Positions 35,220 through 62,985 of a stretch of 64,000 bases of DNA are shown here, one piece after another; within the stretch, counting starts at the first letter, position 1; each line of letters begins with the position of its first letter. The notes beneath the pieces are model-generated. The model ran no database searches, had not been told where the DNA came from, and worked only from the letters and a program-made list of their open reading frames with translations. A program made the translations under genes and the position numbers. This DNA is from an uncultured Christensenella sp. (lineage in GTDB: Bacteria; Bacillota; Clostridia; Christensenellales; UBA1242), in assembly GCA_964455585.1 (NCBI GenBank), contig CAYVXW010000002.1:1734-65733 (forward strand), read 5' to 3'.

Positions 35220-35897
35220 CTAGATATCTTTTAGCAAATATTCCACCATTGCCCTTTGTGTTGCGGTCAAGTTTGAATCTGCCAAAAGGCTTTTTAGTTC
35301 CCTTATGCCTTGAACCTTTTGAACACTTCCGCCGTCGCTACAAATGCCCGCGTGTAGTATTCTTGCATCTATATCGCTAGGGTTGGCATCAATATGCTCA
35401 CCCAAAACCTTTAGCCCTCTTGCAAATAGTTCTTCGGCGTATCCTTCAATTTCGATATAGTCGGGGTCGCCATCCAAATCTTCCTCGTCTAGGATGTACT
35501 CTTCCCAATACATAAGTTCGCCATATACCAAGTCGGCGGACTGGAATATACATTTTGCCTCGTTTAGTTTGTCGCCTACGCTTTCGTAATACTTTGCGCC
35601 ATATAGATAGTCGGCAACTTGATTTGGTCTAGCCTCTTGCAACTTTTCGATAATTTCAATGTCGTCAAGTTTGTAGTCGCTAGCATTTACGATTTTTTTG
35701 TTTTTGCAAGCACTAACGTCCGCACTTGCGTATCCACAATTGGGACATCTTTCAATAAAGAAGTGCCACAAGTCAAAGTAACCCTTTGCCCCAACATTTT
35801 TGTCCGATATAAATAGGTTTGTTCTAATTTCGTTGTCAAATGTGAATTTGTATCCACATATTGCACATTTTTTTGTTATCCTCATAGTCATTACCAT
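35220..35897 (-). CDS. Zinc-ribbon plus helical-repeat protein (DUF2225-like)
   Basis: The pattern is CAICGYKF...YFDLWHFFIERCPNCGYA followed by a helical region. It matches my memory of DUF2225. The start is ambiguous among three ATGs at 35897-35885. Confidence 0.6.
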   Translation of the reverse strand: MVMTMRITKKCAICGYKFTFDNEIRTNLFISDKNVGAKGYFDLWHFFIERCPNCGYASADVSACKNKKIVNASDYKLDDIEIIEKLQEARPNQVADYLYGAKYYESVGDKLNEAKCIFQSADLVYGELMYWEEYILDEEDLDGDPDYIEIEGYAEELFARGLKVLGEHIDANPSDIDARILHAGICSDGGSVQKVQGIRELKSLLADSNLTATQRAMVEYLLKDI

Positions 35898-38496: not shown

Positions 38497-38528
38497 ACAA
38501 AAAAGCAAGATATTATTCTTGCTTTTTT
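38497..38528. terminator. Bidirectional terminator after degV
   Basis: The sequence is aaaaaaa-AGCAAGA-tattat-TCTTGCT-ttttt. Confidence 0.6.
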
Positions 38529-38652
38529 AACCTGTTTTCGCTTTTTGTCTTTCTTTTTTTGGAGTTTTTATTTAGGGTTTTACCCGTTTTGGTTGTTATA
38601 CACAACTTGTCTTCCTTTGGTCGTTTTATGTAACCCCCGTTTTTTAAACACA

Positions 38653-39723
38653 CTACAACAATTGTTCGGGCTCGAATGAATCTTTTATTGACCTAAGTTC
38701 GTCCATAAGTTTTGTAAGTGGCATTCTGGGCTTGTAACATTCCGAGTGCAAATTATCTAGCCCGTGTTCCACAAGCCTACATAGTGCCCACGCCATCATT
38801 TGGGAACTAGCATCGGCATTCACCGACGCCACCTTTTCGCCCCTTGCATCGTCGCCCGATAGCGATTGTCCTAGGCGGTTTCTGGCAATGATATCCCACT
38901 TGTCGTTTCGCTTTAGATAGGATAGCAAGTGTTCATAGCAATTGTTTTCAAATGCGTTTAGATACTTTGCCGAATATACGCCCACGCTTTCGGCAAGCCC
39001 GTCGTCCGACTTATCCCAAAACTTGCCCTTTGGAAAATATCTAAGTTCTATCCCCTCATATGGTTTAAACATTCCCTCGTGCTTTAGAAGTTCGTTTTTG
39101 TAGTTATTGGTAGTTGGGTCATATTTTGTATTAAAGTTTATTGTTGGAATGGCGCTTGCTCCGCCATACTCGGGTGCAAACGACACTTGACCCGTGGCGT
39201 TCATAATTTCGCTCACTTCCGCATAACTATACCCCTTTTCTTCCAACAATTCTCTTAGGGCAAAAAGGATTTTGTCTAGTTCGACCGCACCGTGACAATA
39301 GGTAAAAAACACGGTTTTGCTCATTTGCTTGCAGGCGTCATCTAGGCTTAGCCTATTGCCGTCGCCGTCTAGACACCTAGCACACAATAACTTTTCGGCA
39401 ATGGCGTATGTGGTGTCCCTTGTAAACCTACCCGTGTCGCCATTTGCAAGTTGCCCATAAACAAACGGCAAAATGTGGATTTCTTCCCTTAGGGACTTGC
39501 CGTCTTTTGTATCAACATTTTCATAAAGCAACTTCAAAAAGTTTTCTAGTATTCCACCCAAATTTTCGGCTTCTTTTTCGCTTAGAGTCATATTCCCACC
39601 AAGCAACAATACATTTATTCCGTCCTTAGGATAGTCGCTTGGGTTTAGGGTCTTAAAACTAGACTTTCCGTCCGCCAATACCATTTCACCAAAACTTGGA
39701 TATATGTAATATTTGTTATTCAT
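38653..39723 (-). CDS. Putative alpha/beta-hydrolase-like protein with a Cys in the nucleophile-elbow position (paralog 1)
   Basis: The 356-aa protein is collinear with the N-terminal ~330 aa of the upstream gene. Shared segments are VLLLGGN/LCLFGNA, KTVFFTYCHGA/KVMFFSYCQGQ, VSFAP, EHL and NADASSQMMAWAL/NADCVSQIMAYAL. Confidence 0.7.
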   Translation of the reverse strand: MNNKYYIYPSFGEMVLADGKSSFKTLNPSDYPKDGINVLLLGGNMTLSEKEAENLGGILENFLKLLYENVDTKDGKSLREEIHILPFVYGQLANGDTGRFTRDTTYAIAEKLLCARCLDGDGNRLSLDDACKQMSKTVFFTYCHGAVELDKILFALRELLEEKGYSYAEVSEIMNATGQVSFAPEYGGASAIPTINFNTKYDPTTNNYKNELLKHEGMFKPYEGIELRYFPKGKFWDKSDDGLAESVGVYSAKYLNAFENNCYEHLLSYLKRNDKWDIIARNRLGQSLSGDDARGEKVASVNADASSQMMAWALCRLVEHGLDNLHSECYKPRMPLTKLMDELRSIKDSFEPEQLL

Positions 39724-39741
39724 CTTCTACCTCGAATGTTT

Positions 39742-41718
39742 TTAGTCTTCATATATTTCCCTTTCCATTTGTGGCTCGACCATACCTAGTATTTGGGATT
39801 TTTCGCTATCGTTTAGAACCAATACTTCTGGCAAAACATATTTTGCACCACAAAAACCGTATTTTGCATACTTATCAACAATTTCCTCAAAACTCTCGGC
39901 ATTGTTTAAAGTATTGATTAAGTCCTCAAATTCGGGCATTTCTAGGTGTTTTTCTCTACGCTCAAGCCCGTCTTTTTTGGCACTTGCCATTGTGTGAAGA
40001 GCGTTACACTCCTCCCTACTAAGCCTATCCGACACACTAAACACCAAATCGTATGCACCAAAATAGTCGTAGTTTTCAAAAATGTTTGCAACCGCATTTA
40101 GCGCGTTTTCGTTTTTGTCTATTTCGCTTAGTTCGTTTGAAATATTCACATAGGCTTTTTCTTTTCTTGCCGTCTTGGACATTAGGTATTCGTCCTTTAG
40201 TGGTGCCAATATTCTATTGCACTCCACAAATGTCAAGTCATATCTTTTGCCACCCATTTCCATAAATTTTTTAAGCAAAAGATTTGCGTTTACATAGTCA
40301 AAATTGCAAATAATATCGTGTATTTCGCTCAAATTTTTTGCTTTTTTCAAAGCCTCTAGAATTATGGTATTAGGCTCACTTAGCCACTTTCTTTTTTCCT
40401 TATCCACTGCCCTATGCGTTGCACCAATCCTAAGAAGGGTTAGTTCGCTTGGGTTTAGTTTTATGTTAATTGCACCCAAAAGGTCTTCAAAATTTGCGTA
40501 GTTGTTTTCCTCAAATATGGTTGCAACTTCCTTAAAAGATTTTGCTTGGGACAAAGCCGAATACATAACGCTTTGAGGGCTAGAATACTCAAGAAGATTT
40601 TTGGACATTTGCTTTAGTTTTTCCCACCTATCGCTATTGTAGCCTATGCGTCTATCCTGCCTTCGCTTATCCTCGTTCAAACGCAAGTCTCGCTTGTCAA
40701 AGCCGTCAATTATTGACCTAATTTCAGTTGGCAATGTGGTTTCAAAATTGTTTGGGATGTATCTATTGCTAGCCATATTTTTTTCGGCATTCTCGATTGC
40801 AAGCCCCAAAGCGTACGCCATAATTTGCGACACACAATCGGCATTCTCCGACACAACCTTAACGCCATTACGGTTTGTGTATTCCTTTATGTCCCAATCG
40901 TTAGTCCTAGACAAAATATCTATTAGATGTTCGTCCATTTCTTTTCCCGTTTTGTTTAGAAGTTCGGACGAAACAATATTTATACTGCCCGCCAAAGCGT
41001 CTCTTCGTCTTTCGCCATAAATTTCGCCCACGCCGTCCACTTTTACATCTATGCCGTCTAGTTCGATATATTCGCTTGGGCTATACATATACTTTATATC
41101 CGAACCCACTCTTTCGTCTTTTGAACTGAGCACCCTAATGGATGGCATATAGTTGCGTTTGCTATCAAGAGGAGCAAACGACACATTGATTGTGGCATTA
41201 TTAATCCTTTCAATTTCGTCTTTTGAGTATCCCAACTTTTCCAAATTCCAGTCAAGAGCGTCCATAATTTTGTTGGCTTCCACCTGCCCTTGACAATACG
41301 AAAAGAACATTACTTTTGACATATTTTTAAGTGCGGTATCAAGAGGCAAACGCATATACTTTTCGTCTCTAAATAAAGGGGTGAGAACCTTATTTACAAA
41401 GTCATCAATAAAGCCCAAACTTAGTGAACCCACTTCGCTCCATTGGCTATCTTTTGAGTACTTAAACCCAAGCAAATCTACTCTGTCTAGGATATTTTCG
41501 TCCCCTCTTTTAATAAGTCCTAGCAAATTTTCCACAAACTTACATCCACCATTTGCCTCGGCAAGAGTGGTGGTAGCATTTCCAAAAAGACATAGGACAG
41601 TAGGCTTGGTTATATTATAATCGGACGGAAAAAGTTGTTCCCAGTGATGCTCACCACTTGGAACTCGCCTACCAAACTCATCGTTGCAATAGTATCTTGC
41701 GTCTTTTTCGCCTATCAT
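39742..41718 (-). CDS. Paralog 2: the same N-terminal domain plus four C-terminal helical repeats
   Basis: The protein is 658 aa. The C-terminal ~300 aa contain four modules of about 60-70 aa, beginning AKSFKEVATIFEENNYANFEDLL, AKNLSEIHDIICNFDYVNANLL, ENALNAVANIFENYDYFGAYDLV and AESFEEIVDKYAKYGFCGAKYVL. Confidence 0.7.
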   Translation of the reverse strand: MIGEKDARYYCNDEFGRRVPSGEHHWEQLFPSDYNITKPTVLCLFGNATTTLAEANGGCKFVENLLGLIKRGDENILDRVDLLGFKYSKDSQWSEVGSLSLGFIDDFVNKVLTPLFRDEKYMRLPLDTALKNMSKVMFFSYCQGQVEANKIMDALDWNLEKLGYSKDEIERINNATINVSFAPLDSKRNYMPSIRVLSSKDERVGSDIKYMYSPSEYIELDGIDVKVDGVGEIYGERRRDALAGSINIVSSELLNKTGKEMDEHLIDILSRTNDWDIKEYTNRNGVKVVSENADCVSQIMAYALGLAIENAEKNMASNRYIPNNFETTLPTEIRSIIDGFDKRDLRLNEDKRRQDRRIGYNSDRWEKLKQMSKNLLEYSSPQSVMYSALSQAKSFKEVATIFEENNYANFEDLLGAINIKLNPSELTLLRIGATHRAVDKEKRKWLSEPNTIILEALKKAKNLSEIHDIICNFDYVNANLLLKKFMEMGGKRYDLTFVECNRILAPLKDEYLMSKTARKEKAYVNISNELSEIDKNENALNAVANIFENYDYFGAYDLVFSVSDRLSREECNALHTMASAKKDGLERREKHLEMPEFEDLINTLNNAESFEEIVDKYAKYGFCGAKYVLPEVLVLNDSEKSQILGMVEPQMEREIYED

Positions 41719-41918
41719 TTTACTCCTCTTATCGTGCCAACTTTCGCCCTAAAGACACCATCATTTGCACATATTGTTTATTATATTATATCATAAGTAC
41801 AACGCCATTTCAAGAGGCATTGGAGAAATTTTATATACTAGCAAAAACATCATAATTTTATATTTATTTGACATAATATTGTTGCGTTTTTCAGTTTAAA
41901 ACTGTAAAATTCAAGTAT

Positions 41919-42164
41919 ATGGAAAAAGATTTACAAAAATTAATTTATGATAACTCAATCGCATTTGCAAAAAACTTAAAGTTAGAGCGTGAAGCAAGCG
42001 GACTAAGCAAGAGGGAAATGGCAAAACTTATGGGCATTGCTATGCAAAGTTATTGGGCTTATGAAAATGGACTTTCTTTGCCCACGACCGAAAATCTTCT
42101 TAAACTATGCCACATTTTGGACATATCGCTAGACGACCTATTTGAAATAACGCCCAAAAAATAG
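41919..42164 (+). CDS. XRE-family HTH regulator (81 aa), divergent from the paralog pair
   Basis: The HTH reads GLSKREMAKLMGIAMQSYWAYENGLSLP...LDDLF. TGTAAAAT lies 11 nt upstream of the ATG, so the mRNA may be nearly leaderless. Confidence 0.8.
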   Translation: MEKDLQKLIYDNSIAFAKNLKLEREASGLSKREMAKLMGIAMQSYWAYENGLSLPTTENLLKLCHILDISLDDLFEITPKK

Positions 42165-45617: not shown

Positions 45618-48086
45618 TTACTTTTCGCTAACAACAATTTGGAACAGACAACATTTGTTGCCATCTATAAGCAAATTTGCATTGCCTTCCTCTATGCTAA
45701 ACTCGATTTGGATATTCTTGCCTTCCAAGTATGGCTCAAATACTGCTTTTACCAAATCCAAAGCATTGCCACCAATTACTCCATTAAGCAAAATGGAGTT
45801 GTATACATAAAGATTGAACGTGCCACAAATATGCAAGGAATTAAAGGAATTAACCAAGTGCTCCACCTCGCCATCGGCGTCTATGAGCAAGTTTTGGGAC
45901 AGAATGCAAATTACGCCAATTGAGCCGGAGTTGTTGTAAACCATAAACGAAGTAGCGTATTGCAAAGTCAAATATTGTTCTTGGAATTTTTGTCCCCTTA
46001 GATATTCCACAAACGTATTTAGAAGCCTTTGGAATCCGCTATCCGACACCACGTTATAGGTTGTGTTATTTTCGGTATTGTACACTTGAACCATATAGTC
46101 ATAGTCAAACATAACTTCCAAGTAGTCGATGTTTTCGTAGAGCATATAATAAAACAATGCAAGAGCGTCGCCGTCACTATCAACCACAAAGTCGTACTCG
46201 CTGTTGGCATATTCAAACACACGGCTATTGTAATAGTCATAGCATTCATTTGCCGGCATAAACTTAAACTTGTCTCTATACTCATATGGGAAGTGGGTTT
46301 CTTCCACCATTTCGTCATCCACAAGGAAATAGGTGTGTGCCAAAACCTCGGTGGAGTTGCCAGAAATTTCCGTCCACGTAATATCCACTAGATAGTACTT
46401 GGCAGGGATGTCGTCGTCGGGGTCGTCGTCAAGTAGAACTTTGTTCCAAGCGTGACCGCCAATTGAACCACCACTTGATGCCGTTCCAACCACTCTAACT
46501 GCATCTATGTCTAGCATATTGCACATCAAACTAAACGCCTTTGAAAATCCGTCACAAACGGCAGTGCCGTTTATAAACACCCCCTCAAGATAGTAGCAAG
46601 GGCACTCGGGTGGATACTTTCCGCTCACATAGTTTCCGTCGCTATCGTATTCGGTGTATTCGGAATAGTCATATACGGTGTTTATACATATCCAATCGAA
46701 TATGGAAAGCACCTTTTCAAAGTCGGTCATTTCGTTAGATACAATTTCACCCAAAACCGTTTTTGCTTTGTTATAAATTTCTTCGGCGGAACTATTTTTT
46801 TCTACAATTGGTGTAACACCATTTTCCACCGCCCAATAAAGTTCTTCGGATGTGTCGACCTCGGTGGACAAAAACCTATGGTCGCTAGCAAACTCGTAGC
46901 CGTTTTCAATATCGACCGATAGCATTGTATAGTCGTCTTTTACAACGTCATAATATCCTAGCGAACTTTCTTGCGTTTTTGTGTTGGTGGCAACAATGTT
47001 TGTGTCACACTCGCCAACTAGGTAGTCAATCTTTATATTATATGTTCTATTTTTGCTTGAAATTTCCCTTGCAAAGTGCTTTTCGGTTCCAACCTTGTTG
47101 CCCGTTTGGAAAACAATGGTTTCTATAAACGAATTTAGCCCATAGTTATATACAAGTTCGTCTAGCCTATCAATAAATCTAAGCCCCGAGCAAGCGTTTG
47201 CAAGGTTATAAACCTCTTCCGAAAGCCTAATGTCAAGGTCGGCAATAACCCCGTCCGAGGTCTTTTCTCTATATATAAACGAACGATACATAAGCGTTTG
47301 GAGTTCGTCTAGAGTATTGATATAGTAGTCATAAATTTTCCCGTCAAAAATGTATATTTTGTCGTCATCGGTGTAGCCCGAAAAGTTGTCGGGATTAAAA
47401 TAGAATACGTCGCTTATTGCGTATTTTTGGTTGTCAATAATTGCAAGTATCCTCATAGCCGAAATTTCGGTTTTTGGAATGCTTGTAAAGTCGGAAAGGT
47501 CTATATAGTACTCTTGGGTTGAGTGCGTACTAGTAGTGTTTGGCTCAAAGTAGTATTCCTTATATCCCAAACTATTTGACTCAAGCCCCAAAGCAAAATT
47601 GCACGAAACGCTAGGAACATCAAAGTAAATTCTACTATCCGAAATGTAGGCGTCCACATAGTATTCTTCCTTTTCCTCAACTACTCCTGCATCCACTTTG
47701 TCGACAACGGCGGTACTTAGAGTATACGAGCCCGAATATGTGGTTGATTTTGAGACCCCCACACCACTTGACACGCTTTTTACCTTAAAGTCGTATGTTT
47801 TTGCTTCATCCAAAAGCCAACTAAACTTGTAGATATTTATGCCCTCATCGACACTATCCACCTTTTCGCCGTCAAGATAGATATCATAGCCGAGTGCTCC
47901 GCTAACCTCTTTCCACGACATTGCTTGGCTATTTTCGTAAATGACAAGGTCGCCACCCGTGTCCCCACCAAAACAACTAAGGTCCGTATCTAATAGCCCG
48001 CACCCCGATATTATTGGACAAAAAACCAATATCAGTATTAAAATTGGAAACAAATATTTTTTTACTTTTTTCATTTTTACCGCCAT
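45618..48086 (-). CDS. Lipoprotein with an Fn3-like N-terminal module and a transglutaminase-like Cys-His-Asp core
   Basis: The signal peptide ends in lipobox IISGC. An Fn3-like strand reads AMSWKEVSGALGYDIYLDG. The transglutaminase-like core reads CDGFSKAFSLMCN...GGHAWNKVLLDDD...YYLVDITW. The start is either 48086 or 48074. Confidence 0.8.
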   Translation of the reverse strand: MAVKMKKVKKYLFPILILILVFCPIISGCGLLDTDLSCFGGDTGGDLVIYENSQAMSWKEVSGALGYDIYLDGEKVDSVDEGINIYKFSWLLDEAKTYDFKVKSVSSGVGVSKSTTYSGSYTLSTAVVDKVDAGVVEEKEEYYVDAYISDSRIYFDVPSVSCNFALGLESNSLGYKEYYFEPNTTSTHSTQEYYIDLSDFTSIPKTEISAMRILAIIDNQKYAISDVFYFNPDNFSGYTDDDKIYIFDGKIYDYYINTLDELQTLMYRSFIYREKTSDGVIADLDIRLSEEVYNLANACSGLRFIDRLDELVYNYGLNSFIETIVFQTGNKVGTEKHFAREISSKNRTYNIKIDYLVGECDTNIVATNTKTQESSLGYYDVVKDDYTMLSVDIENGYEFASDHRFLSTEVDTSEELYWAVENGVTPIVEKNSSAEEIYNKAKTVLGEIVSNEMTDFEKVLSIFDWICINTVYDYSEYTEYDSDGNYVSGKYPPECPCYYLEGVFINGTAVCDGFSKAFSLMCNMLDIDAVRVVGTASSGGSIGGHAWNKVLLDDDPDDDIPAKYYLVDITWTEISGNSTEVLAHTYFLVDDEMVEETHFPYEYRDKFKFMPANECYDYYNSRVFEYANSEYDFVVDSDGDALALFYYMLYENIDYLEVMFDYDYMVQVYNTENNTTYNVVSDSGFQRLLNTFVEYLRGQKFQEQYLTLQYATSFMVYNNSGSIGVICILSQNLLIDADGEVEHLVNSFNSLHICGTFNLYVYNSILLNGVIGGNALDLVKAVFEPYLEGKNIQIEFSIEEGNANLLIDGNKCCLFQIVVSEK

Positions 48087-48134: not shown

Positions 48135-49073
48135 TTACACATTCAAAACCCAATGTCTTGGAGCAGTAGACCAAACACGCCCGTCAATCAAGTTTTCTTG
48201 AACGGCTTCAACCGCCTCGACTATTACTTGGATTTGACCATACTTTCCGCCATCGTCACAAGTAAAGTTTTTGCCAACAAGTTCTATTTCGGTAAAGAGT
48301 TCCACCCTTCCGTTGAAGCCCAACACACCATTGTAATAGTAGTAGCCGTCGTCTTCCGTAACGCCTCCACCCATAATGTCCTCCTCGTCCTCGGCATTGT
48401 ATCTATACCACATAGAGCCCACATTTGGACTGAGCAAGTCGTAGCGTTCCTCATAGCCCAATATTAGCACAACTTTGAACCTTACATATACGCTAGTTGG
48501 AGTGGAAGAGTTGTTTGAAAGCACATCACCACGATAGTCGTCGGAATTCCTAGCATAGGCTCTTAGTTGGATTATGTCCCCAGGGTTAAGTTCTCTTAAA
48601 ACTTCTTCGCCCGTTTCGGTAACCATACTAAGCGACGATTTGTTTTCTATCTTTAGGCTAACCCTAATATCCGAGAACCCCTCGTCCACGGCACCATTTC
48701 GCCCAATAAATATTACAAACACTATAAGAATGGCAATTACTACAAGCACAAGCAAAAGTGCTATTGCCACCTTCATATTTTTCTTAAATTCGCCACGAGA
48801 ACTAGGCTTTTTTGCTTTGGCAACAGTGCCAGCACCACCAGTGCTCTTTGGCGTATACGACCTGCCCGTTGCCCTATTTCTAAGCCTTTCTAGAGCCTCT
48901 CTTTCCAAGTCTCTTTCGGTTGGTTCGGGAGCGTCGTCAACTATTGCCGGACGGCGGTCTTTGTACGTCCCCGTCCTAGGCTTTGTTACGTCAATTCTCT
49001 TGTCGTTAGAGGTCGAAAAAGACGAACCATTTTCGTTTGGATTATTTGGGTTTTTGTTTTTGTTTTCGTCCAT
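48135..49073 (-). CDS. Membrane-anchored TasA-like protein with a ~100-aa disordered cytoplasmic N-terminus
   Basis: A Pro/Asn/Arg-rich N-terminus is followed by one TM helix (VAIALLLVLVVIAILIVFVIFI). The ectodomain carries NPGDIIQL, VYVRFK and VEAVEAVQ, motifs shared with the three downstream-family paralogs. AAAGGAG lies upstream of the ATG. Confidence 0.6.
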   Translation of the reverse strand: MDENKNKNPNNPNENGSSFSTSNDKRIDVTKPRTGTYKDRRPAIVDDAPEPTERDLEREALERLRNRATGRSYTPKSTGGAGTVAKAKKPSSRGEFKKNMKVAIALLLVLVVIAILIVFVIFIGRNGAVDEGFSDIRVSLKIENKSSLSMVTETGEEVLRELNPGDIIQLRAYARNSDDYRGDVLSNNSSTPTSVYVRFKVVLILGYEERYDLLSPNVGSMWYRYNAEDEEDIMGGGVTEDDGYYYYNGVLGFNGRVELFTEIELVGKNFTCDDGGKYGQIQVIVEAVEAVQENLIDGRVWSTAPRHWVLNV

Positions 49074-50332: not shown

Positions 50333-51040
50333 TTAAAAATAGTCATTGCTATCGTGCTTTTTGTTCTCATCGGAGGACACAAAACTTTTGAATATTTCGG
50401 GCGACGATGTCCACTCGGCACTTGAAGCGCCATATTGCCTTTGAATTGCCTCAATTGTAATTCTAATGCTAACGGGTGAGCCCTTGACCGAATTATTTAG
50501 AGTATTGTCCACATAATATCCGTCATTAAATTGAGTTCCATTGTCGTCAAGATAGCCGATATAATAGTAATATCCGTCACTACCCAAAACCCACTTGTTT
50601 TGGTAGGTAGAAGAATATGTGCTTGGTGGGGACGACACTAGCCTACCGCTTGCAAAATGCAAACTAACTTCGGGCCTCTCAATTACATTGCCGTTTCCAT
50701 CCTTTCCGCCATCAATTTCGCACTTTATCCTAACATACGCACCATCTATATTGTGCTTTTCGCTAGTTTTTAGATATGTTTCAAACTTGTTGCCCGCTCT
50801 ATCCTCAATGTATGCAGTATCGGGAGCAAGGGCAAGATTTCTAAAACCAAAGTTATAGGTTACATCTAGGTCGATTGTTCCTACAACCATAACGGAAGAG
50901 TCGGGAGAAGATGTTGAACTTTTGTCTTCAAACCACGAAAGCGTTACGCCTGCGACACAGTACACAAAAGCCACAAGCAAAATAATTATAAGCGCCGTGA
51001 AATAAGCATAATTTAGTTTTGGCTTTTTTCTATACTCCAT
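50333..51040 (-). CDS. TasA/camelysin-like secreted protein (SipW-type signal), paralog 2
   Basis: The signal segment reads VAGVTLSWFEDKSS followed by VGTIDLDV; compare TasA GGGTWAAFND...SGTLDL. Other shared motifs are AYVRIK and ITIEAIQ. Confidence 0.75.
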   Translation of the reverse strand: MEYRKKPKLNYAYFTALIIILLVAFVYCVAGVTLSWFEDKSSTSSPDSSVMVVGTIDLDVTYNFGFRNLALAPDTAYIEDRAGNKFETYLKTSEKHNIDGAYVRIKCEIDGGKDGNGNVIERPEVSLHFASGRLVSSPPSTYSSTYQNKWVLGSDGYYYYIGYLDDNGTQFNDGYYVDNTLNNSVKGSPVSIRITIEAIQRQYGASSAEWTSSPEIFKSFVSSDENKKHDSNDYF

Positions 51041-51085
51041 TTTCTTCTCCCATTTTACTCACAAATTTTATAGTTTTGTGGATAA

Positions 51086-51964
51086 CTAATTTTTTAAATA
51101 ATTACTAGGTTGTTTCCACGCAAGCCATCCGCTATTTGGGTTTGCGGTCAAATCGCAAGGGATTGTAGCCCCAAACGGGAATGCATTTACGGGGATTTGG
51201 CTATCGCCACTAAACCCATCGGGCACTGTAAACTGTGACCAATTGACACTAAGAAGTGGGTTTGTGGATGGCACAGTTGTAATATAAGTAGAACCCGAGT
51301 GCGAGTTTTGATATTCATAAATCTTTTTGTAAATATTACCCGAATGGGAAATTGCGTCCACTGTAACCGCCACAAATATATTGTCACCTCGACATTCGCT
51401 AGGCACAGTTATTTTGGATATAATATCCACTTGCCCATCCGCATTGGTCTTGCCGTCAACAGTGTATGGCTCTAGCACTTTGTTTAGATACATTTCACCA
51501 CTGGCAACAACACCAAAATTCCTAAACCAACCAGCGGTGTCAAGATTAATACTTACTGCACCGGAGGTGGAATCTTTTTGAGGGGTGGTGTCAGTTACTA
51601 GATAGTTTATGTTCTCGGACTTATATACCCTAATTGAAACTCGAATTAGTGCATCAATGTCGCCTGTGTTTCTAACTTTTAGATTAAGTGAGCGAGTAGT
51701 ACCGCCCTTTGGAACCGAGTATGTGTGCTCGCACTTCCACACTCCATTTTGACTGTGCGATGTGGTGTGTGACACACTATTTCCATCCGCCACAATTGCC
51801 ACCGCAACCGTGCCCAGTTTTGTTCCCTCACTCTCGTACGGGTCGTCATTTCGCCACTTTAGCCACGCCAAAACCGTGCCGACAAGGGCGCAAGAAACAA
51901 GCACTACTATTGCTAGCATTGCCACAAAAGATATTATGTACTTATTTCTTTTTTTGCCTACCAT
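51086..51964 (-). CDS. TasA/camelysin-like secreted protein (SipW-type signal), paralog 1
   Basis: The signal segment reads LVGTVLAWLKW followed by LGTVAVAI. Other shared motifs are ALIRVSIRV and VTVDAIS. The ATG lies 6 nt after the signal-peptidase stop. Confidence 0.7.
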   Translation of the reverse strand: MVGKKRNKYIISFVAMLAIVVLVSCALVGTVLAWLKWRNDDPYESEGTKLGTVAVAIVADGNSVSHTTSHSQNGVWKCEHTYSVPKGGTTRSLNLKVRNTGDIDALIRVSIRVYKSENINYLVTDTTPQKDSTSGAVSINLDTAGWFRNFGVVASGEMYLNKVLEPYTVDGKTNADGQVDIISKITVPSECRGDNIFVAVTVDAISHSGNIYKKIYEYQNSHSGSTYITTVPSTNPLLSVNWSQFTVPDGFSGDSQIPVNAFPFGATIPCDLTANPNSGWLAWKQPSNYLKN

Positions 51965-51970
51965 ATCTTT

Positions 51971-52564
51971 CTATTCCTCGTCGTCGTTTTCGTAACACTC
52001 AATGTCGTCAACATACATTTTGTCTCTTATCCAGAACACTCCCCAAATAAAGATAACTAGTATTATTGCGTATGCAATAAGCATTGTTGTATTGCCCTTT
52101 ATGTACATTACAATATCGCCCATCCACGCAAAGCAGTGAGACTCATATACCACGCCCACAAGTTCTTCTTCGTAGAATGCGCCGTCTTTGGTGTCGGAGT
52201 TGTCGCCCTTGGTGTACCAATAGCCGTTCTCCCACTTATCCTCATCAAAACCCTCTTCACCGGGGTTTGGGATTATTGTGTTGTCATATACTTTTCCCTC
52301 AATTCTGTGGGTCAAATATATTCCGCCTTTGTTCATAGTAACAATATCGCCAAGTTCCAAATCTTCATAGTCCCTTGGTGTTACTATTATAAGACTTCCA
52401 ACCGGAAGCCTTGGTTCCATAGAACCCGAGGATACTATCATAAACTTATAGCCGATGACATATGCAAAAATTACCGTAATAACAAGTGCTATGCCAAACG
52501 CTCTAAGAAGTTTTCCTAGTAGCCCCTTGAAAAAGTTGTCTTTTTCTAATCTATAAAATCTCAT
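51971..52564 (-). CDS. sipW: Signal peptidase I of the SipW/archaeal-ER type
   Basis: Motifs are SSGSMEP (Ser nucleophile box), LTHRI (the His box of the Ser-His type) and TKGDNS, plus N- and C-terminal TM helices. Confidence 0.85.
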   Translation of the reverse strand: MRFYRLEKDNFFKGLLGKLLRAFGIALVITVIFAYVIGYKFMIVSSGSMEPRLPVGSLIIVTPRDYEDLELGDIVTMNKGGIYLTHRIEGKVYDNTIIPNPGEEGFDEDKWENGYWYTKGDNSDTKDGAFYEEELVGVVYESHCFAWMGDIVMYIKGNTTMLIAYAIILVIFIWGVFWIRDKMYVDDIECYENDDEE

Positions 52565-52663: not shown

Positions 52664-55600
52664 TTATTTGTGTCTTGGGTATGTGCCCGAAACATCATAT
52701 CCGCCATTTTCTTCCTTTTCCATAGTCGATTTTAGGTTGTCAAGTGCGGTATTTGTATTTCCGCCCGCCGAACTACCCTCAACAAGGGTACCAAATTCGC
52801 CCGATGCTAAGTTAAACGAATCTCCATTGAAGATGTAGTACGAGTTTGTAACTGTTGCAATACGAGAAATTGCATTAATGTCAAGTTGTTGGTGTACGGT
52901 GAATGTGTAATTTAGAACCACATAGCATTTTTCTACTGTTGCACTTCCGCCCGAACTTGCGGAAACTATTCCCGCAACGATAATGGAACTTGCATTCTCG
53001 CCCGAATTAGAAGTTGTGTGCTCAACCACAACTTTTGCAAGGGAATAGCAAGTAGAAATTGTTACATTTGTACCCGAGCCAACTTCGCACATAATTGCAC
53101 CAAGAACGCCCGACCTACTTTCAGTACTATCTTCTATTCCATCGTCGGTTACAGTAAGAACAACATTTTCGTCAACATAACATTTAGAAATTGTTATGTT
53201 GCTATTGGTGCCACCAACTACTTCCTCGGACATAACCACAATTCCGGCTACATAGTTTGCATAAATTTTGCCAACATAAAGTTCGCCCGTCGTATCAACA
53301 ATTGCACCAAAACTACAATTTTCGATTACCGAACCGCCACTTGTTTTGCCTACAATTCCGCCTGCTTTGGAGGTCTTGTTGGTCAAGGCTTCGATATTTA
53401 GTTTTGCTACAGAATTTTTGATTGTACCCATATTGGAAGCAACCACGCCACCAACCAAGATAGCAATTTGAGTTTTTACCTCAAGTACAATTTGGGCTTT
53501 CATACTCTTTGAGTAGTCGATATTGCTTGCACCCTCGTCTACCCTATTGCCGTTTTTGTCGGTTAGATATGGAAGAACATTTACGCTATCAAGTGTGCCA
53601 TAGTTTCTAATAGCAACGCCCGATACCATATATTCCGAAACATCACTACTGTTGGTGTAGTCGATATTTACTTGGAAGTTGGTGTTCCTAATTGTTCCAT
53701 AGTTGTCAAGAATGAATGACATATATGAAGTCTTGTCGTTCTCCTCCTTAACAGATGGGGTGATGTTGTAAATATAGTGATTGTCACCATCAATTACACC
53801 CGAGAAACTATCTATCATTGTCCAATTTGGATTGTAATTGGTTTGACCCATAGAAGAAGACTCAATCTTTATATCTTTTTCTAGTTTGTAATCGCTAGTT
53901 GGGTAAATTCTAATGTTATTTAGATTAGCGTAAGTAGCAATTGCATATGGAATGTATTCCGTGCCATTTCCGGATGCAAATAGCGTCATACTAACATCCG
54001 TCAAGTTTGGACGATAAGTGCCCGACTTGTATGCGCCCTTGTCGCTAGAAGCCGTGTCGTAAGCGGTAGTTGTAAGACCAAATGTATACTCGCTTGCAAC
54101 CGCCCTTAGTTGATAACTTGTTGGGGTTGGTTCGCCCTCGCCCGATTTTAGGATAATCAAATCTTTTACATAAATAGTAAATGTTTCGCCTTGGGTATAG
54201 TCGTAACTAATTCTTCTTTCCTCAACAGTATTGTCATCTAGATACTTGCTATCAAAATTACTATTTTTTGTAGTATTTTGGTCAAAGTCTGGAGTTGTGC
54301 CATTAAGTGGAGAAGTGATGTGTGCCGATTTTAACCAAGCGTTTAGAGCCTCGGCATCTAGGTTTTCTACCTTGTAGGTAGTTTCCAAAATGATATTGTA
54401 ACCGGTAGAAATATGGTCTTTGTTGGATAGCGTCCAAGAAAGTGTTCCAGTTGCACTATCATATTTTGCATCCACTGGTGCGGATGGAATAGATATGTCT
54501 AGTTTTGCGCTATAACTACTGCTTACAAATGCTCTATTGGTGCTAGTCTCGCCCAAGCCGTCGGTAGTTTCAATTGTTCCAATTGCTTGCACAAATGCAC
54601 AAATTTCGGAACCGCTTGAACTTAGTTTGCCAATAAGGTTGTTCATCTTGAATATCATTTCGTTATCATTTACTTCGGTAAACTCGTTGCTTGCCCAAGT
54701 CAAGCCTTCTTTAGTTTCAACATCCGACCTTTCTGGATATTTGATTTCTACAGTTGCCGTGCCATTTACGCCTTTGTAGATTGTGTAAATGTATTCAGAA
54801 TATGTGCCGTCGGAATTCTTTACATAGAACTTGACTCTATATCCCGAAGCGTTAGTTTGAAGTGGCCAATAAATTCTACTTTCTTGCGAAGCGGAAGTGT
54901 TTGCCACGTTCTTGAGTTCTGGAGTTTGCAACTTGGTGATATAGAACTCTTTGTTGCTACTTGCTAGATAGAACCTATCGCCATCCTTAATGCTATCGGT
55001 CGAGCCCTCAGTTCCACTATACTTAATAACAATATCGTGGTTGCCCGCGCCAAATGTTACGGTGTCGGCAGATGAATTGTAAGTTTGGAAGTTGTCCACA
55101 GTTAGTTCGGTAAAGTACTTGTACGAAAGAGTTGATGTGCTATCAATCGTTACACTGTTTCCGTCTATCTTTAGTTCAGGAAGAGTAACGGATTGACCTG
55201 CCGTCTTGTCCGCCTCGGTTCCCCAACCGAATACACCATCCTCAACTGTTGGCTCAGGGTCGGCAATTCTTGTAACTTCAAGACTTGCGGAGTACGAACT
55301 ATTTAGATATCCGGCATCAAATTTTGCAATAGCCTTTACTCTAATATTGGTTGTACCCAAAATGCCGTCATAAATCTTTGTTGTTGCAGTTGTGCTAGTA
55401 TCAATTTCTTTTTCTTTTGTGCCCCATTGATACGAAATGGCATATTTGCTTACATTGCCAGTGGTGTCGTTGGATTTTCCGTTCCACCATAGGTTGCCTT
55501 CTTTGTCAACTCCTAGCCCAGTAGGAATTGCAAGACGCAAGTAACTACCCGACCAAATCTTATTCTCCTCGTCCTCAACCTTGTGGGTCTTAACGGTGTC

Positions 55601-58600
55601 GGAATTAAAGTAATTCTTTGAGGTTACATATGTAGTTGCCCCGCCGTCTGCCGAAGGAACTTCGTCTAGCCTTGTTGCTATAATTTCTATGCTATACATA
55701 AAGCCACTTTCGTTTAGTGATGGGTCGTCTGGCATATCAAAATAGGTTTGGTTATAAACAATTGTTGATGTGTTGCACATTTCAGGGTTTGCATTGGCAT
55801 CGGCTCCTACGGCAATCTTTTTGATTGTGACAATGTATGCATTTGCAAATGGAACGGCGTTCCACTCAAACATACCCGCAGTGGCATCCGTCTTACCCAA
55901 CCAGTATGGCAAGCCGTCTTGTGTGGATTTTGCACTAGTTGTGCCAAGTTTGTAGGCGTATACAACTTCGGATATAGGGCTATCAACAACACCTCTGCCG
56001 TTTCCTATTTCTTGTTCGTAAATTGCATATCCGCCCTCGGTGAAGTTTAGGTTGTCCGAAAGGGTTATTTCGCCCGTTCTTTCGTCGTCCACTCCCGAGT
56101 TGATTTCTTTAACCATTCCCAAAAGGGCAGTTGCGTTATTCTTTACATAAGACTTAACTTCCGCTAGCCTATCCTCTTCAAACTCAAATTCATCAAATAC
56201 GCTATCGTCTTTTTGGTCGCTTTCGGCAAATTTAATTTCGGCAAGCAATAGTTTAGTAGCATCTAGTTCCGTCCAATTTTTGTTTGCGTTCTCTAGGCTT
56301 TCGGCTTTGTAAAGTGGTCCATAAACCTTGATAAGCGAACTAACCGAATTATCGTTTGGAGTCCACTTGAATGCACTTTCTTCCACGCTTGTTTCGCAAG
56401 TATGAAGGATTGTCATTGTGTCGCTAAACATATATGAGTTGCTATTTAGCAAGTAAACTGTATCGCTTCCGTCGGTTGCAGGTGTACTATCCTTTGTTCC
56501 CATTGCTAGGATGAATAGTCTATAGATTTTGTCAAGGTCAACCTTGGTTGTTTCGTTATAGAACATTTCCTTTACATCTTTTGAATACTTGTAGCCGTCG
56601 CCCACATTAGGGTCTTTGCTTTCGCCGTCTAGGTCACCAACCGTCACTTCGGCATAAGCCACGCTTTCGCTTCCGGCAGTGATAGCCGACAAATAGTAGT
56701 CTTTGTGATAAGTGAATGGGTCTTCGTCCCCAGTTGCACCTTGATTTGCAATAATGGATAGTTCCCATAATGCTTTGCCTTTACTAATATCGTTTACGGT
56801 GTATTTAGGTGCACTTGGGTCGCCACTAGTTGGATTGTCCTCACCATCTAGTTCGTCGTCCAAAGTCATAATTTCTTCGTTTTCATCGTCACCAGTGTTA
56901 TCCTCTTCCACTAGAACTTTGTCATACCAACTCTTTGGAGTGGTTAGTTTGTAGGTTTTTAATGTTCCCGACTCAATGCCGTTTAGGACATTGTCGCCAC
57001 CAACTGCACTAATGCTAATGTCATAGTAGCCGGCGGTATACTGAATGCCCGCAGAGTTGGTTACCGTATTCGACACATCGTCACTATCGACATCGTAAGT
57101 GGTAGAAACCGAAACATCGTACAAGAACTCAAATTTGGCAACCGAACTACCACTTTCTACAACCTCTCCTTGTGAGTTAAGAAGCCTTACTTCGCTAGGA
57201 GTATCTATTGTTTCAACGCCATTGATGTTTAGTCTAATTTTGTAGAAGTGTTCGGTAAAGATACCGTCAAATGTAGAGTTATCTGACTCGCCATTGAGTG
57301 CCATATCTTTTATGTAGTCATAGAAAGTAGTATAATCTATAGTGCCCTTTTGGCTACCCGCAATTTCGGTAACCACTTGGACTCTAGCCTCTTCGCCGGC
57401 GTCCTCGCCTCCGCCCTCGCTAAACTCTACACCGTCTAGATATTTAAGCATTTCGGTGGTTGAAATTGTCCACGAAAGTTTTCCTTCTTTTACCTTGTAG
57501 GTGCCTAGCATACTAGGTCTATATGCTTTTGTAGAAGAATCGCTTTGAGCCAAAGACGATATCATTGCAAGTTTTGGATTGGTAATTGCGGTAACCGAAA
57601 TATCCCAATATCCGCCATTCAAAGTGCCAATTTTGCTAGCATACTCCGAAGCATTAAAGTTTATATCCGAACCATTTTTATAGATTATTACGATATTCTT
57701 CCCATCGGTAATTGCAATTTTGTAAGTCACTGCCGATGGCAATGCACTCCAAGCAAGTTTTCCGTTGGAAACCGATGGTGTGGTGCTATTTGCAATATAT
57801 TCCACTTTACAATCGTTGGTCACAAGTGAATAGTCGCTATATAGCAATCCAAATGATTGGCTTTCATTTCCCATAGCCATCATTCTTATGTCGTACTTTC
57901 CAACCTCTACATCGTTTGTTAGTTCGTAGTATTGCTTATTGTCGGTGCTTGATAGTTTTGCTTCTTTGATTTCTTTGCCACTTTGGTCAAAGAACACAAG
58001 TTTTAATTCATATCCCGTTTTGTCTTTGTTTGGGTTGTCCCAATTTAATATAGGCTTTCCAACACCGTTTCCGCTTTCGTCATATAGTTGCATATTAAGA
58101 GCGGTAGGAGCCATAAGTTTTTTGAACCTAAACTCGCTAGATAGTTCGCTACATAGCATACCCGTTTTTTGAGTGATGATGCTAATCTTGTAGGTCTCGC
58201 CCGCAACATATGCAAATGTAGTTTCGCCCGTTTCGGACTCATCGTCCCCACTTGCAAAAACTTTTACATCGCTAATGCCGTCGCCCTCGGAAATAACCGC
58301 AGGCAAGGTGATGTCGCCGTCGCCCGAGTAATTGAACGACACAACCAATTGATTTAGATTGTTTCTAATTTGAACAAAGTAACTTCCGCCCTCAACTGCA
58401 GATGCCCATACAAGGCTTCCGTCTTTTGATTGGATAGACAATACTTTTTCGGATTTTGCAAATGTATATACGGTTGACTCTTCCGAACTTAGAACCTTTC
58501 CGCCATTTCCAATAAACATAATTGTGGTGCCATAGGTGCCATTTTCGTCGTAGCCCTCTAGCCCCCTTATGTCAATTTCGTATACTCCGCCGTCAATTGT

Positions 58601-61600
58601 TGCAAATGCACTATACTCGCCAAATGGAATTTCTTTAACAATGGCCTCTACCGAAGTGTCGATTTCGATTGTTGGGTCGCCCTCCTCGCCTTCAACACTG
58701 GTTACGGTCTTGTATTTGTTGATTGTAATCCTTACGCTTGTTGGCTCAAAGCCTTCAAATGTTTCGTAGTAGCCATATGCAAACTTTCCACTATTCGACA
58801 CTGTTACTAGGTCGGTAGACGCAGTTGCAAGTTTGACAACTTGTACACTAGCACTATTGCCATCTAGATATGGGTCGCTAGATGTGAGTGTTTTTATTTT
58901 GAATGTATGCCTGCCTGCATCCAATGCGTCTATCGCATAAACAAATTTGTTTATTGAACTATCGTAAACAAAATCGGTAGATTGAGTATATGTGCCCTCG
59001 CCATCCACATCTTTATAGATTGAACAAGTATAATCGTTGCCACTCTTTTCTACTTTTAGTTTTGTTGTGGTGGATTCGTCAAGCACAATTTCAAACATTG
59101 AAACCCCACTAACATATGCCCATTGCAACTTTTCGTTTACCATAGTTATGTCGCTAGCCTCACCAACCTTGGTAAGCCTCTTTACTCCCGACATACTGCT
59201 TGAAATGCATCCATCAAGCACTGCCCTTATGGTTAGGTCAAAGTCGCCTGCAGGTAGCCCATAGAAATCAACGCCATAATCAAATGCAACGTTATCTATT
59301 TCGTAGTTGTTTCCAATGCTGGAAATTAGGTTTCCGTCCTTATATAGTTTGAATGTCAAGCCTTGGTTAGGGCTTGTGTCGTCCTCGCTTGCTTTGTATT
59401 CAAAGGTTGCTCTTCCGTTTTGGGCTTTAATTTCTCCAACGGTAGGAAGTTTTGTAATTGATACTTCTTTTTCGTTTTCTGCTAGCCAAATTCCAGTAGA
59501 AACAAAGTCAACCGAAGTTTGGATTTTTATATCATAAACACCGGCGTCCATTTCGGCAAACGACAAATATTTTTCGCCCGACAAGGTTTGGATATCCTCG
59601 TCCGAAACGGCACTGCCGTATTCGCCATTCGATGTTAGTTTATAATAAATTGCGTATGTAATTCCGTCGTCATAAGTCCACACAACACCCTCGGCGTCAC
59701 TGCTTACTCTAGCACCCACACGCCCGTCTCTTACTTTGATTTCGATAGATGGGTTATTTGTGCCCGTAGCAACCGACGAACTATCCAAAATGTATGGATT
59801 TTCGCTACTAACGCCACTGGTTTGACTATTTTCGCCACCAGCCACAATTGTTATTGTATAATCGCCAACTTCTAGTCCGCTAGGCAACTCATACTCGGTG
59901 CCATCAACTGTTTTTGGGGTCTCGCCGTCAAATATTGCCTCAGAGCAAATAAGGGTGTATTCGGAGCACTTATTTACACTTGACCAAGTAATCTTTGGTG
60001 TGGTTCCGCTTGCGTTTCTTGAAACGTTTACGGTTGTCAAGACTGTGGCATATATTTTGTCGCTAGCCGTGCTTGCAAAGTAATTTGGATGAGTTTCCCA
60101 AATTTCCATTGCAACCGTCTTTCCCTCATAGTCGCTCAAAACGCTTCTAATATTTAGTTTGTAGCCCCTGCCGTCTTCATTTGTGGTGCCACTTGAATAT
60201 GCTACCGATTTTTGTGCAACCCTAGTGCTATCAACATAGAAGTTTATAACATAGGTAATTCCGCTAACGGTTGAGGTTGACGACCAAGATAGTTCGCCCG
60301 AAGGGCTCATTTTAAGCCCCGTTGCCACTCCCGAGCGATTGAACGAACTGCTAACTTTTACTGAGTCAATAATTCCCGCAACGCCCGAACTTGATGGACT
60401 GCCTATTACATAAGCCTCAATGTTTATTTGTTCGCCACTAATGTAGTCGATTAGTTTGTTGGTGCTATCTTTGCAATTTAGTTGGGTTAAGTCAATTGTA
60501 ACCTTTCCGCCACTAACCGAGCCTCTTGTCTCTTCCGAAACAACATCGCCACTAGGGGTCTTTAGGATAACAACATATGTTTCGCCAACTTTGTTAAATA
60601 CAAGTTTTGTCGAATCCTCAAGGGTCATATTGGTAATTGAACTTCTTCTATTGAAGTTTACATTGCTTGAGCCCGATGAGGAAATAATTGCATTTGAACC
60701 CGACAATGATGTATTGTCATTTTTGTCGGTAATGATAGAGTAGTAGAATACATCACCCGCACTCAAATATCCATCTATTTCTTCCGTCTCAATGCCCACG
60801 ATTTCTTTTGACGCTTGTCTAGATAATAAAACTCTGACAACATCAAACAAACTAAAGGTGTATTTGCCACTTACTTTGGTTAGCGGAACAACCCCGTCCT
60901 CTAGGTCGCCACCGTCTTTTAGGCTAACCTCTTGGGCGTTTCCGTTTTTGGAAAGTCTAATGGTGTAGTTCTTTATTTCCTCGGCACTACCACCATTTTG
61001 ATATGACACAGGCGCAAACGAAATTGTGCCGTTTGAAGAAATTTGAGTAGCCGTTGTGTCTTTTAGGACTTGGCAAGTATAAACTGGATTTTTGGAAACC
61101 TCGGTTGCCGTCAATGTGTTTGCACTTTCTCCAAAGTCACCCACCATTTTTGCATAAATTTGATAGTTGCCCGCACTTAGCCCTGCTTTGCTAATATCGC
61201 ACGATGCGGTCTCGCTAAATACATATTTTGAAAGGTCCAAGTTCTCGGTGTTGACAAAGAAGAACTCAATACCCTTTATTCCATTTGCTCCGCCAACAGT
61301 TATTATGTTGTTGCTAATGCTATGCGAAACAACTGGGTTGTCGCCAGGGATTTCGCCCGAGGCGTTGTCGGCGTTATAGATTTTTCCTAGTCTAGTATAG
61401 AAAAGGTTTTCCCATTCGCCTGCAATTGTTCTTTCGCTATTTCCTACAAGCCTTACATAAACAATTTTTCCCGCCGTAATATCTACTTCCGGCTCGCTTG
61501 TAATAAACACGGTGATAGTGGTTGTTTTGTCGCCAAGAACCAATTGTCCAGTTTTACTTGGAGAAATTTCCTTTAGCCTATCGGAAGAAAGTTCGTTTGA

Positions 61601-62920: not shown

Positions 62921-62985
62921 TTCTACACCTTTAGTCATTTTATTTAAAGTCTTTGTGGGGAGTCGCCCCACCTTTCTCTTGAGTT

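Follow-up and report, generated by a model that had tools for sequence, protein, structure and literature searches.

Introduction

Catalytic cysteines, in place of the usual serine, are rare among the alpha/beta-hydrolases, and a 2024 survey of the superfamily found the Cys-Asp-His triad in only three clusters, those of dienelactone hydrolase (DLH), PhaZ and polyhydroxyalkanoate (PHA) synthase (PMC11878206). Obc1, a serine hydrolase according to the literature, belongs to oxalate biosynthesis in Burkholderia; in this protein of around 1100 amino acids the Obc1_C domain is fused to an ObcA-like domain, and it releases oxalate, acetoacetate and coenzyme A (CoA) from an acyl-CoA adduct (PMC5028181). 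The oxyanion hole of Obc1 involves an arginine (PMC6972931). Here we analyze two adjacent genes in a 64,000-nucleotide stretch of contig CAYVXW010000002.1 from an uncultured Christensenella sp., the whole of which we refer to as the window. The genes encode paralogous proteins of 658 and 356 amino acids, the long and the short paralog.

A preliminary description of this DNA took the two proteins for Cys-nucleophile hydrolases of a possibly uncharacterised family, likened them to DLH, and regarded a divergent XRE-type regulator gene beside them as a sign of accessory or mobile cargo. Our analysis suggests, with a probability that we put at roughly 70%, that both paralogs are cytoplasmic Cys-His-Asp enzymes of the alpha/beta-hydrolase fold, which would act through a thioester acyl-enzyme as hydrolases or acyltransferases on an ester, thioester or amide.

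Results

Fold of the shared domain

The two proteins align with 33% identity over about 355 residues (BLASTP, E=7e-42) and share a domain of about 345 residues; all five motif blocks listed in the preliminary description are present in both. The AlphaFold2 (AF2) model of the short paralog, built with an alignment of 19 close sequences, has a predicted local distance difference test score (pLDDT) of 81.5 and a predicted template modelling score (pTM) of 0.86. The model of the long paralog has a pLDDT of 78, with the N-terminal domain and the C-terminal helices well predicted and a disordered linker at residues 354-377. In these models the secondary structure follows the order beta3-alphaA-beta4-alphaB-beta5-alphaC-beta6-beta7-beta8-alphaF, forming a mostly parallel central sheet flanked by helices.

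A Foldseek comparison of the short paralog with the PDB returned Obc1 as the best match (5iky; E=1.4e-6, probability 1.00, TMq 0.47); the remaining named matches in the ranking are exclusively esterases, lipases and other alpha/beta-hydrolases. For the long paralog Obc1 is the sole significant match (E=3.5e-4, probability 1.00). In BFVD, a library of predicted viral structures, the short paralog matches the Tupanvirus ORFan A0A6N1NN29 first (E=4.6e-8, TMq 0.53) and then esterases. The secondary-structure order of the AF2 models and the matches in the PDB and BFVD together place the shared domain, as predicted, in the alpha/beta-hydrolase fold superfamily, which is the fold that the preliminary description had anticipated.

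No model of Pfam, NCBIfam, PADLOC or PHROGs reaches its cut-off for either paralog. Searches of PDB sequences with each paralog singly returned nothing meaningful, and comparison of PDB sequences with a profile of 105 family members did not recover Obc1. The only model with recurrent weak matches is Pfam Obc1_C, centred on the nucleophile-elbow region: it scores 15.1 bits against the long paralog (E=0.011; gathering threshold 27 bits), leaves the short paralog unmatched, and appears weakly in seven of the 105 members (best E=6e-5) as well as in the sequence P0137.

Putative catalytic residues

The nucleophile-elbow motif of the family is [ST]-[HYF]-C-x-G, which has the spacing small-x-nucleophile-x-small and lies after beta5. 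In the model of the short paralog, DSSP assigns a strand to residues 137-142 and a helix to residues 145-162, with C143 between them, so that the cysteine sits in the strand-Cys-helix arrangement that had been proposed for it. Further strands at residues 194-199 and 246-251 precede D202 and H265, respectively. In the topology of the AF2 model, C143 after beta5, D202 after beta7 and H265, part of a D-E-H motif, after beta8 occupy the canonical positions of a catalytic triad, and H265 is the histidine of the EHL block to which this role had tentatively been ascribed.

In the alignment of the 19 close sequences C142/143, D201/202, H264/265 (long/short paralog) and the elbow glycine are all invariant. 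Among 105 diverse members, whose mean column identity is 16%, the nucleophile column holds cysteine in 101 and serine in three, and the elbow glycine, the aspartate and the histidine are each retained in 104. The single sequence that lacks both Cys and His in this alignment is the long paralog, which MAFFT misaligned and which is correctly placed among the close sequences. The cysteine, on whose conservation among homologs the preliminary description had made its reading depend, is present in 101-102 of the 105 members, and the histidine in 104-105. The three members with serine retain the aspartate and the histidine; serine as the sole alternative, with Asp and His kept, is the pattern expected of a nucleophile position. 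Further conserved columns, counted over the same 105 sequences, are G43 (104), N44 (86), Y89 (101), S199 (95), R272 (90), W276 (93) and S307 (98).

Helical repeats of the long paralog

In the long paralog the shared domain is followed by a basic linker and by an array, acidic overall, of four repeats of around 55-80 residues each. Comparison of the C-terminal alignment with itself in hhalign gives an off-diagonal match at a shift of about 68 residues (E=1.4e-10, 193 columns) and a second one at a shift of about 145 residues (E=2.5e-6), which bears out the four repeats of the preliminary description. The units share the core motif L..A.sF.Ei..I...(D/N)Y..A..lL, and in the AF2 model each consists of two or three short helices and then a longer one, less clearly so in the fourth, with a pLDDT of around 80-92.

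A hidden Markov model (HMM) of the repeat recognises four units in each close ortholog. Beyond the orthologs used to build it, the model finds the unit in about 15 clusters, all on the long branch and with one, three or four recognisable copies, and does not find it in other extended family members. The repeats have no relative in Pfam or, by profile search, among PDB sequences, in line with the earlier failure to assign them to a family. Matches to designed helical-repeat proteins in the PDB cover one amphipathic helix only (profile positions 146-176), and we dismissed them as an effect of composition. The segment NNAESFEEIV..YGFCGAKYVL of the fourth repeat bears a superficial likeness to helix-hairpin-helix motifs of the ComEA type, but this reading was likewise set aside: the spacing differs, the glycine hairpin is missing in the other repeats, and there is no Pfam match to a helix-hairpin-helix model. 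The array is most likely a binding or scaffolding module.

Size and distribution of the family

A word-indexed homolog search under-reported the family, with 7-10 relatives, nearly all in Logan assemblies, one also in NCBI and one in ENA. An exhaustive HMMER profile search recovered 666 clusters at 50% identity with E<=1e-3, 380 of them at <=1e-10 and 144 at <=1e-30. Most members are single-domain proteins of around 340 amino acids, and a Pfam scan of longer ones (510-625 amino acids) gave no informative fused domains. The names of 20 members that were looked up go no further than "hypothetical protein [Clostridia bacterium]", and no curated model covers the family, which is uncharacterised, as had been suggested.

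All of the members checked come from metagenomes or from metagenome-assembled genomes (MAGs) of uncultured gut or rumen Clostridia. Among the GTDB species representatives there are 13 loci, all in MAGs of uncultured Clostridia, Clostridiales or Christensenella, from the human gut, deer, buffalo rumen and similar sources; a scan of metagenome contigs with the closer alignment added two short loci only. One locus (L013, positions 150-2356) holds two tandem genes of the short type, and on contig JAZSRL010000009.1 (L004/L006) a 590-amino-acid form with three repeats and a 387-amino-acid form lie about 15 kb from each other. The family seems prone to repeated duplication.

Inheritance of the pair

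The tandem of a long and then a short gene occurs in seven independent lineages, in which the long proteins are 37% to 76% identical to that of the window; identity to a near-identical Logan copy (P0008) is 99%. A neighbor-joining tree resolves the partner short proteins and the four-repeat long proteins as two monophyletic clades with mirrored branching, which indicates one old duplication followed by co-inheritance. Ratios of nonsynonymous to synonymous substitution rates (dN/dS) against orthologs are 0.11-0.14 for the long and 0.05-0.14 for the short paralog; both genes are under purifying selection. Because the two paralogs have been passed on as neighbors from that duplication onward, they probably have distinct, cooperating roles.

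Organization of the locus

The coordinates of the genes, domains and signals are collected in Table 1. The long and the short gene are separated by 18 nucleotides and, as read from the sequence layout, form one two-gene operon. A Shine-Dalgarno sequence, AAGAGGAG, stands 5 nucleotides ahead of the ATG of the long gene, and the short gene has GAGGTAG. The promoter-like element ahead of the long gene, a strong site of the sigma-70 type by its consensus, is recognisable also 5' of the 76% identical ortholog in locus L025, as TTGAAATG...TGATA(C/T)AAT. Together with the dN/dS ratios, this site, the Shine-Dalgarno sequences and the terminator-like hairpin give the pair the look of real, expressed genes. 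Neither paralog has a transmembrane segment or a signal peptide (highest Kyte-Doolittle mean over 19 residues 1.17, N-termini hydrophilic), as had been noted before, and both are therefore taken to be cytoplasmic. No GC anomaly was found at the locus.

Table 1. Coordinates of the putative hydrolase pair and associated features in the window.
Feature	Position in window	Strand	Basis and remarks
Long paralog, 658 aa	39742..41718	-	ORF; predicted N-terminal Cys-Asp-His alpha/beta-hydrolase domain, basic disordered linker and four helical repeats
Long paralog, alpha/beta-hydrolase domain, residues 1-345	40684..41718	-	AF2 secondary-structure order
Long paralog, putative triad	C142 41293-41295, D201 41116-41118, H264 40927-40929	-	Codons verified; columns invariant in close-sequence alignment
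Long paralog, putative oxyanion region (G46-N47 loop after beta3)	41578-41583	-	Invariant columns in close-sequence alignment
Long paralog, basic linker, residues 346-378, isoelectric point ~10, predicted disordered	40585..40683	-	pLDDT <50 at 354-377
Long paralog, four helical repeats together	39763..40584	-	hhalign self-match, repeat HMM, AF2
Repeat R1, residues 379-446	40381-40584	-	
Repeat R2, residues 447-525	40144-40380	-	
Repeat R3, residues 526-598	39925-40143	-	
Repeat R4, residues 599-652	39763-39924	-	
Short paralog, 356 aa, alpha/beta-hydrolase domain alone	38653..39723	-	Open reading frame (ORF), AF2, Foldseek
Short paralog, putative triad	C143 39295-39297, D202 39118-39120, H265 38929-38931	-	Family conservation counts
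Promoter-like site of the two-gene operon, TTGAAA-17-TATAAT with extended -10 TG	41785..41813	-	Pattern scan, 11/12 matches; consensus match only
Bidirectional hairpin resembling an intrinsic terminator, between the short gene's end and the convergent DegV gene	38498..38529	both	Pattern scan
Divergent 81-aa XRE/HTH_3 regulator gene	41919..42164	+	Pfam HTH_3, E=3e-13
Imperfect inverted repeat at the start of the XRE gene, perfect core CAGTTT-T-AAACTG	41876-41920		Inverted-repeat scan

The window flanks of the pair are housekeeping genes, encoding SecA, DegV, RadC, an RNHCP protein, a PHP-domain protein and GatCA. Other loci have rpsF-ssb-rpsR, gerA, cmk, recD2 and Ham1 as flanks, and synteny is partly conserved. 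An ORF of 225 amino acids without a Pfam match (35220-35897, minus strand) is syntenic with the PHP-domain and RNHCP genes in three other loci (L022, L023 and L025).

Elsewhere in the window, a 3435-amino-acid ORF (52664-62971, minus strand) has no Pfam match at E<=1e-5, a lipoprotein-signal-like N-terminus (…IIMVLASAFMSAC…) and a high content of S, T, G and V. Its product is probably a giant lipoprotein of the surface or adhesin-like kind, made up of domains not yet curated. Immediately downstream, three further ORFs (50333-52564, minus strand) have no Pfam match either. An 822-amino-acid protein (45618-48086, minus strand) matches only a transglutaminase core (residues 444-554, E=1e-9) and, together with a 312-amino-acid ORF without a Pfam match (48135-49073, minus strand), directly adjoins SecA.

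Discussion

Proposed activity

In the mechanism that we propose, the His/Asp pair would activate the Cys thiol, which would attack the carbonyl of an ester, thioester or amide to give a covalent thioester acyl-enzyme. This intermediate would be stabilised by main-chain amides from the G-G-N loop that follows beta3 and from the residue next to the cysteine on its C-terminal side, and Arg272 may help, as the arginine does in Obc1. The acyl group would then be released to water, in a hydrolase, or to another acceptor, in an acyltransferase. Conservation of Tyr89, Ser199, Ser307 and Arg272 suggests a small polar or anionic substrate, such as a CoA thioester or a carboxylate ester. The two paralogs may form a hetero-oligomer.

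Several points weigh against this proposal. The triad is placed by topological position in a predicted model that lacks the customary helix from beta6 to beta7, and the TM-scores to known structures are modest (<=0.53). The role given to Arg272 comes from the literature on Obc1 (PMC6972931) by analogy and not from a residue-by-residue alignment. The case for a hetero-oligomer is one of co-inheritance only, and in many instances a gene of the family stands singly (L003-L012). The neighborhoods of 26 loci yielded no conserved functional partner or substrate clue, only housekeeping synteny. The analysis itself establishes the class of fold, the conservation, the topology of the triad, the structure of the repeats, the operon layout, the co-inheritance and the purifying selection; that the proteins are catalytic and work through a thioester, which kind of substrate they take, what the repeats do and whether a heteromer forms are deduced.

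Alternative explanations

A more ambitious version of the proposal is that the pair founds a fourth independent Cys-Asp-His lineage beside DLH, PhaZ and PHA synthase, confined to uncultured gut and rumen Clostridia, in which the paralogs would be an obligate hetero-oligomer and the repeat array would bring in a macromolecule or polymer to undergo acyl transfer or cleavage by way of a thioester. We consider this doubtful; if true, it would mean a new enzymatic activity in the physiology of gut anaerobes. The same Cys-His-Asp scaffold could also serve thioester-forming transferases or polymerases resembling PHA synthase, or C-C lyases resembling Obc1_C, and not hydrolases. Cysteine nucleophiles favor acyl transfer, and PHA synthases of classes III and IV have two subunits and a similar size. 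The known Cys-type enzymes of the fold include PHA synthase and PhaZ (PMC11878206), and the nearest structure, Obc1_C, frees oxalate, acetoacetate and CoA from its acyl-CoA adduct (PMC5028181). However, Pfam matches neither paralog to an Abhydrolase family, to PhaC or to PhaZ, even with E allowed up to 1, and gives no such match across the 105 members; partner genes of the pha, CoA-ligase or citrate-synthase-like kind were not found nearby; and Obc1 uses serine and resembles these proteins at the level of the fold only. We consider a transferase, polymerase or lyase of this kind improbable. That the paralogs are catalytically dead scaffold or binding proteins which keep the fold would agree with the putative binding-repeat array of the long paralog, with the lack of any activity ever shown for the family, and with the existence of receptor-type alpha/beta-hydrolases such as D14 (PMC3436726). 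It is hard to reconcile with triad residues and an elbow glycine that are near-invariant among members averaging 16% column identity, with serine as the only substitution of the nucleophile, and with purifying selection on both genes, and we regard it as highly improbable.

The suggestion that the pair belongs to an XRE-controlled accessory or mobile module, be it a toxin-antitoxin system, a defence system or other cargo moving horizontally, turns on the neighboring regulator. The XRE gene is real, as its Pfam match attests, and divergent, as had been described, and in L025, the closest ortholog locus that reaches that far and the only one where it adjoins the pair, it is retained together with the same upstream palindrome. 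This segment (41876-42164 in the window, 1997-2284 in L025) is 92.7% identical at the nucleotide level, with a synonymous divergence (dS) of 0.19 and an identical stretch of about 50 nucleotides, and is more conserved than the hydrolase pair (around 80%, dS ~1.0-1.2), which may be due to local recombination or to the regulator being strongly constrained. Beyond the XRE gene the window has SecA, whereas L025 has a HipA_C-like gene, a point in favor of such a module, and a 258-amino-acid ORF. Against such a module, an insertion of about 240 nucleotides with a 60-amino-acid ORF separates the XRE gene from the pair's own promoter in L025, and the gene is absent beside the pair in L001, L002, L014 and L016. 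The paralogs have no PADLOC match and no significant PHROGs match, and tblastn found no homologs of the pair in 72,556 plasmids or 50,697 phage records. The clade topologies point to vertical co-inheritance, there is no GC anomaly, and the flanks, among them SecA, RadC, RecD2 and rpsF-ssb-rpsR, are housekeeping genes with partly conserved synteny. With no plasmid or phage homologs, the regulator missing from other lineages and housekeeping flanks, mobile cargo under XRE control is unsupported; mobility is already largely refuted, the idea as a whole is very unlikely, and any link between the XRE gene and the pair is uncertain.

Cytoplasmic Cys-His-Asp enzymes, the reading that we prefer, would add a further, uncurated Cys-type lineage to the three clusters of the superfamily survey (PMC11878206). 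At least 666 sequence clusters, with no curated model, no structure detectable by sequence and, for the members examined, no name or cultured host, amount to enzymatic "dark matter" of the gut microbiome. The two-paralog operon and the novel helical repeat module offer handles for biochemistry.

Comparison with known families

The best named structural match in the PDB for both paralogs is the C-terminal domain of Obc1 (PF21498; PDB 5iky/5ikz), with which they have the alpha/beta-hydrolase fold in common, and an arginine that the family conserves close to the predicted active site may be comparable to the Arg oxyanion hole of Obc1. The likeness is confined to the level of the fold; the long paralog, at 15 bits, falls well short of the Pfam cut-off of 27, and TMq is only 0.47. 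The nucleophile is serine in Obc1 and cysteine in around 97% of family members, and the ObcA-like domain is neither fused nor adjacent here, where the hydrolase domain stands alone or with helical repeats. The Tupanvirus deep ocean protein A0A6N1NN29, a 661-amino-acid "putative ORFan", is a better match of the short paralog than any PDB structure; it is close to the long paralog in length, has 10% identity, and is uncharacterised.

Some PhaC classes act as two-subunit enzymes, whereas here both subunits would be paralogs of catalytic type. PhaC and PhaZ have a Cys nucleophile in an alpha/beta-hydrolase fold (PMC11878206), as the present family is predicted to have. However, neither the paralogs nor the 105 members match PhaC or PhaZ in Pfam, and no pha genes were found in any of the loci examined.

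With DLH the family has in common the Cys-His-Asp triad, putative in the present case, the nucleophile elbow and the fold, and the thioester acyl-enzyme chemistry proposed here would be the same (PMC11878206). DLH structures are among the weak Foldseek matches (9bld, E~2e-2), but there is no Pfam match to DLH at E up to 1 for the two paralogs or at E up to 0.01 for the 105 members. The elbow of DLH is of the G-x-C-x-G type, in contrast to [ST]-[HYF]-C-x-G, and the domain of the family is longer by about 100 residues, with a beta-hairpin at its N-terminus and helices at its C-terminus. The likeness to DLH drawn in the preliminary description holds as an analogy of fold and mechanism, not as membership, and Obc1_C is the nearer structure. 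Taken together, the pair belongs to a new, uncurated and unnamed family within the known alpha/beta-hydrolase superfamily, and is not a new kind of system.

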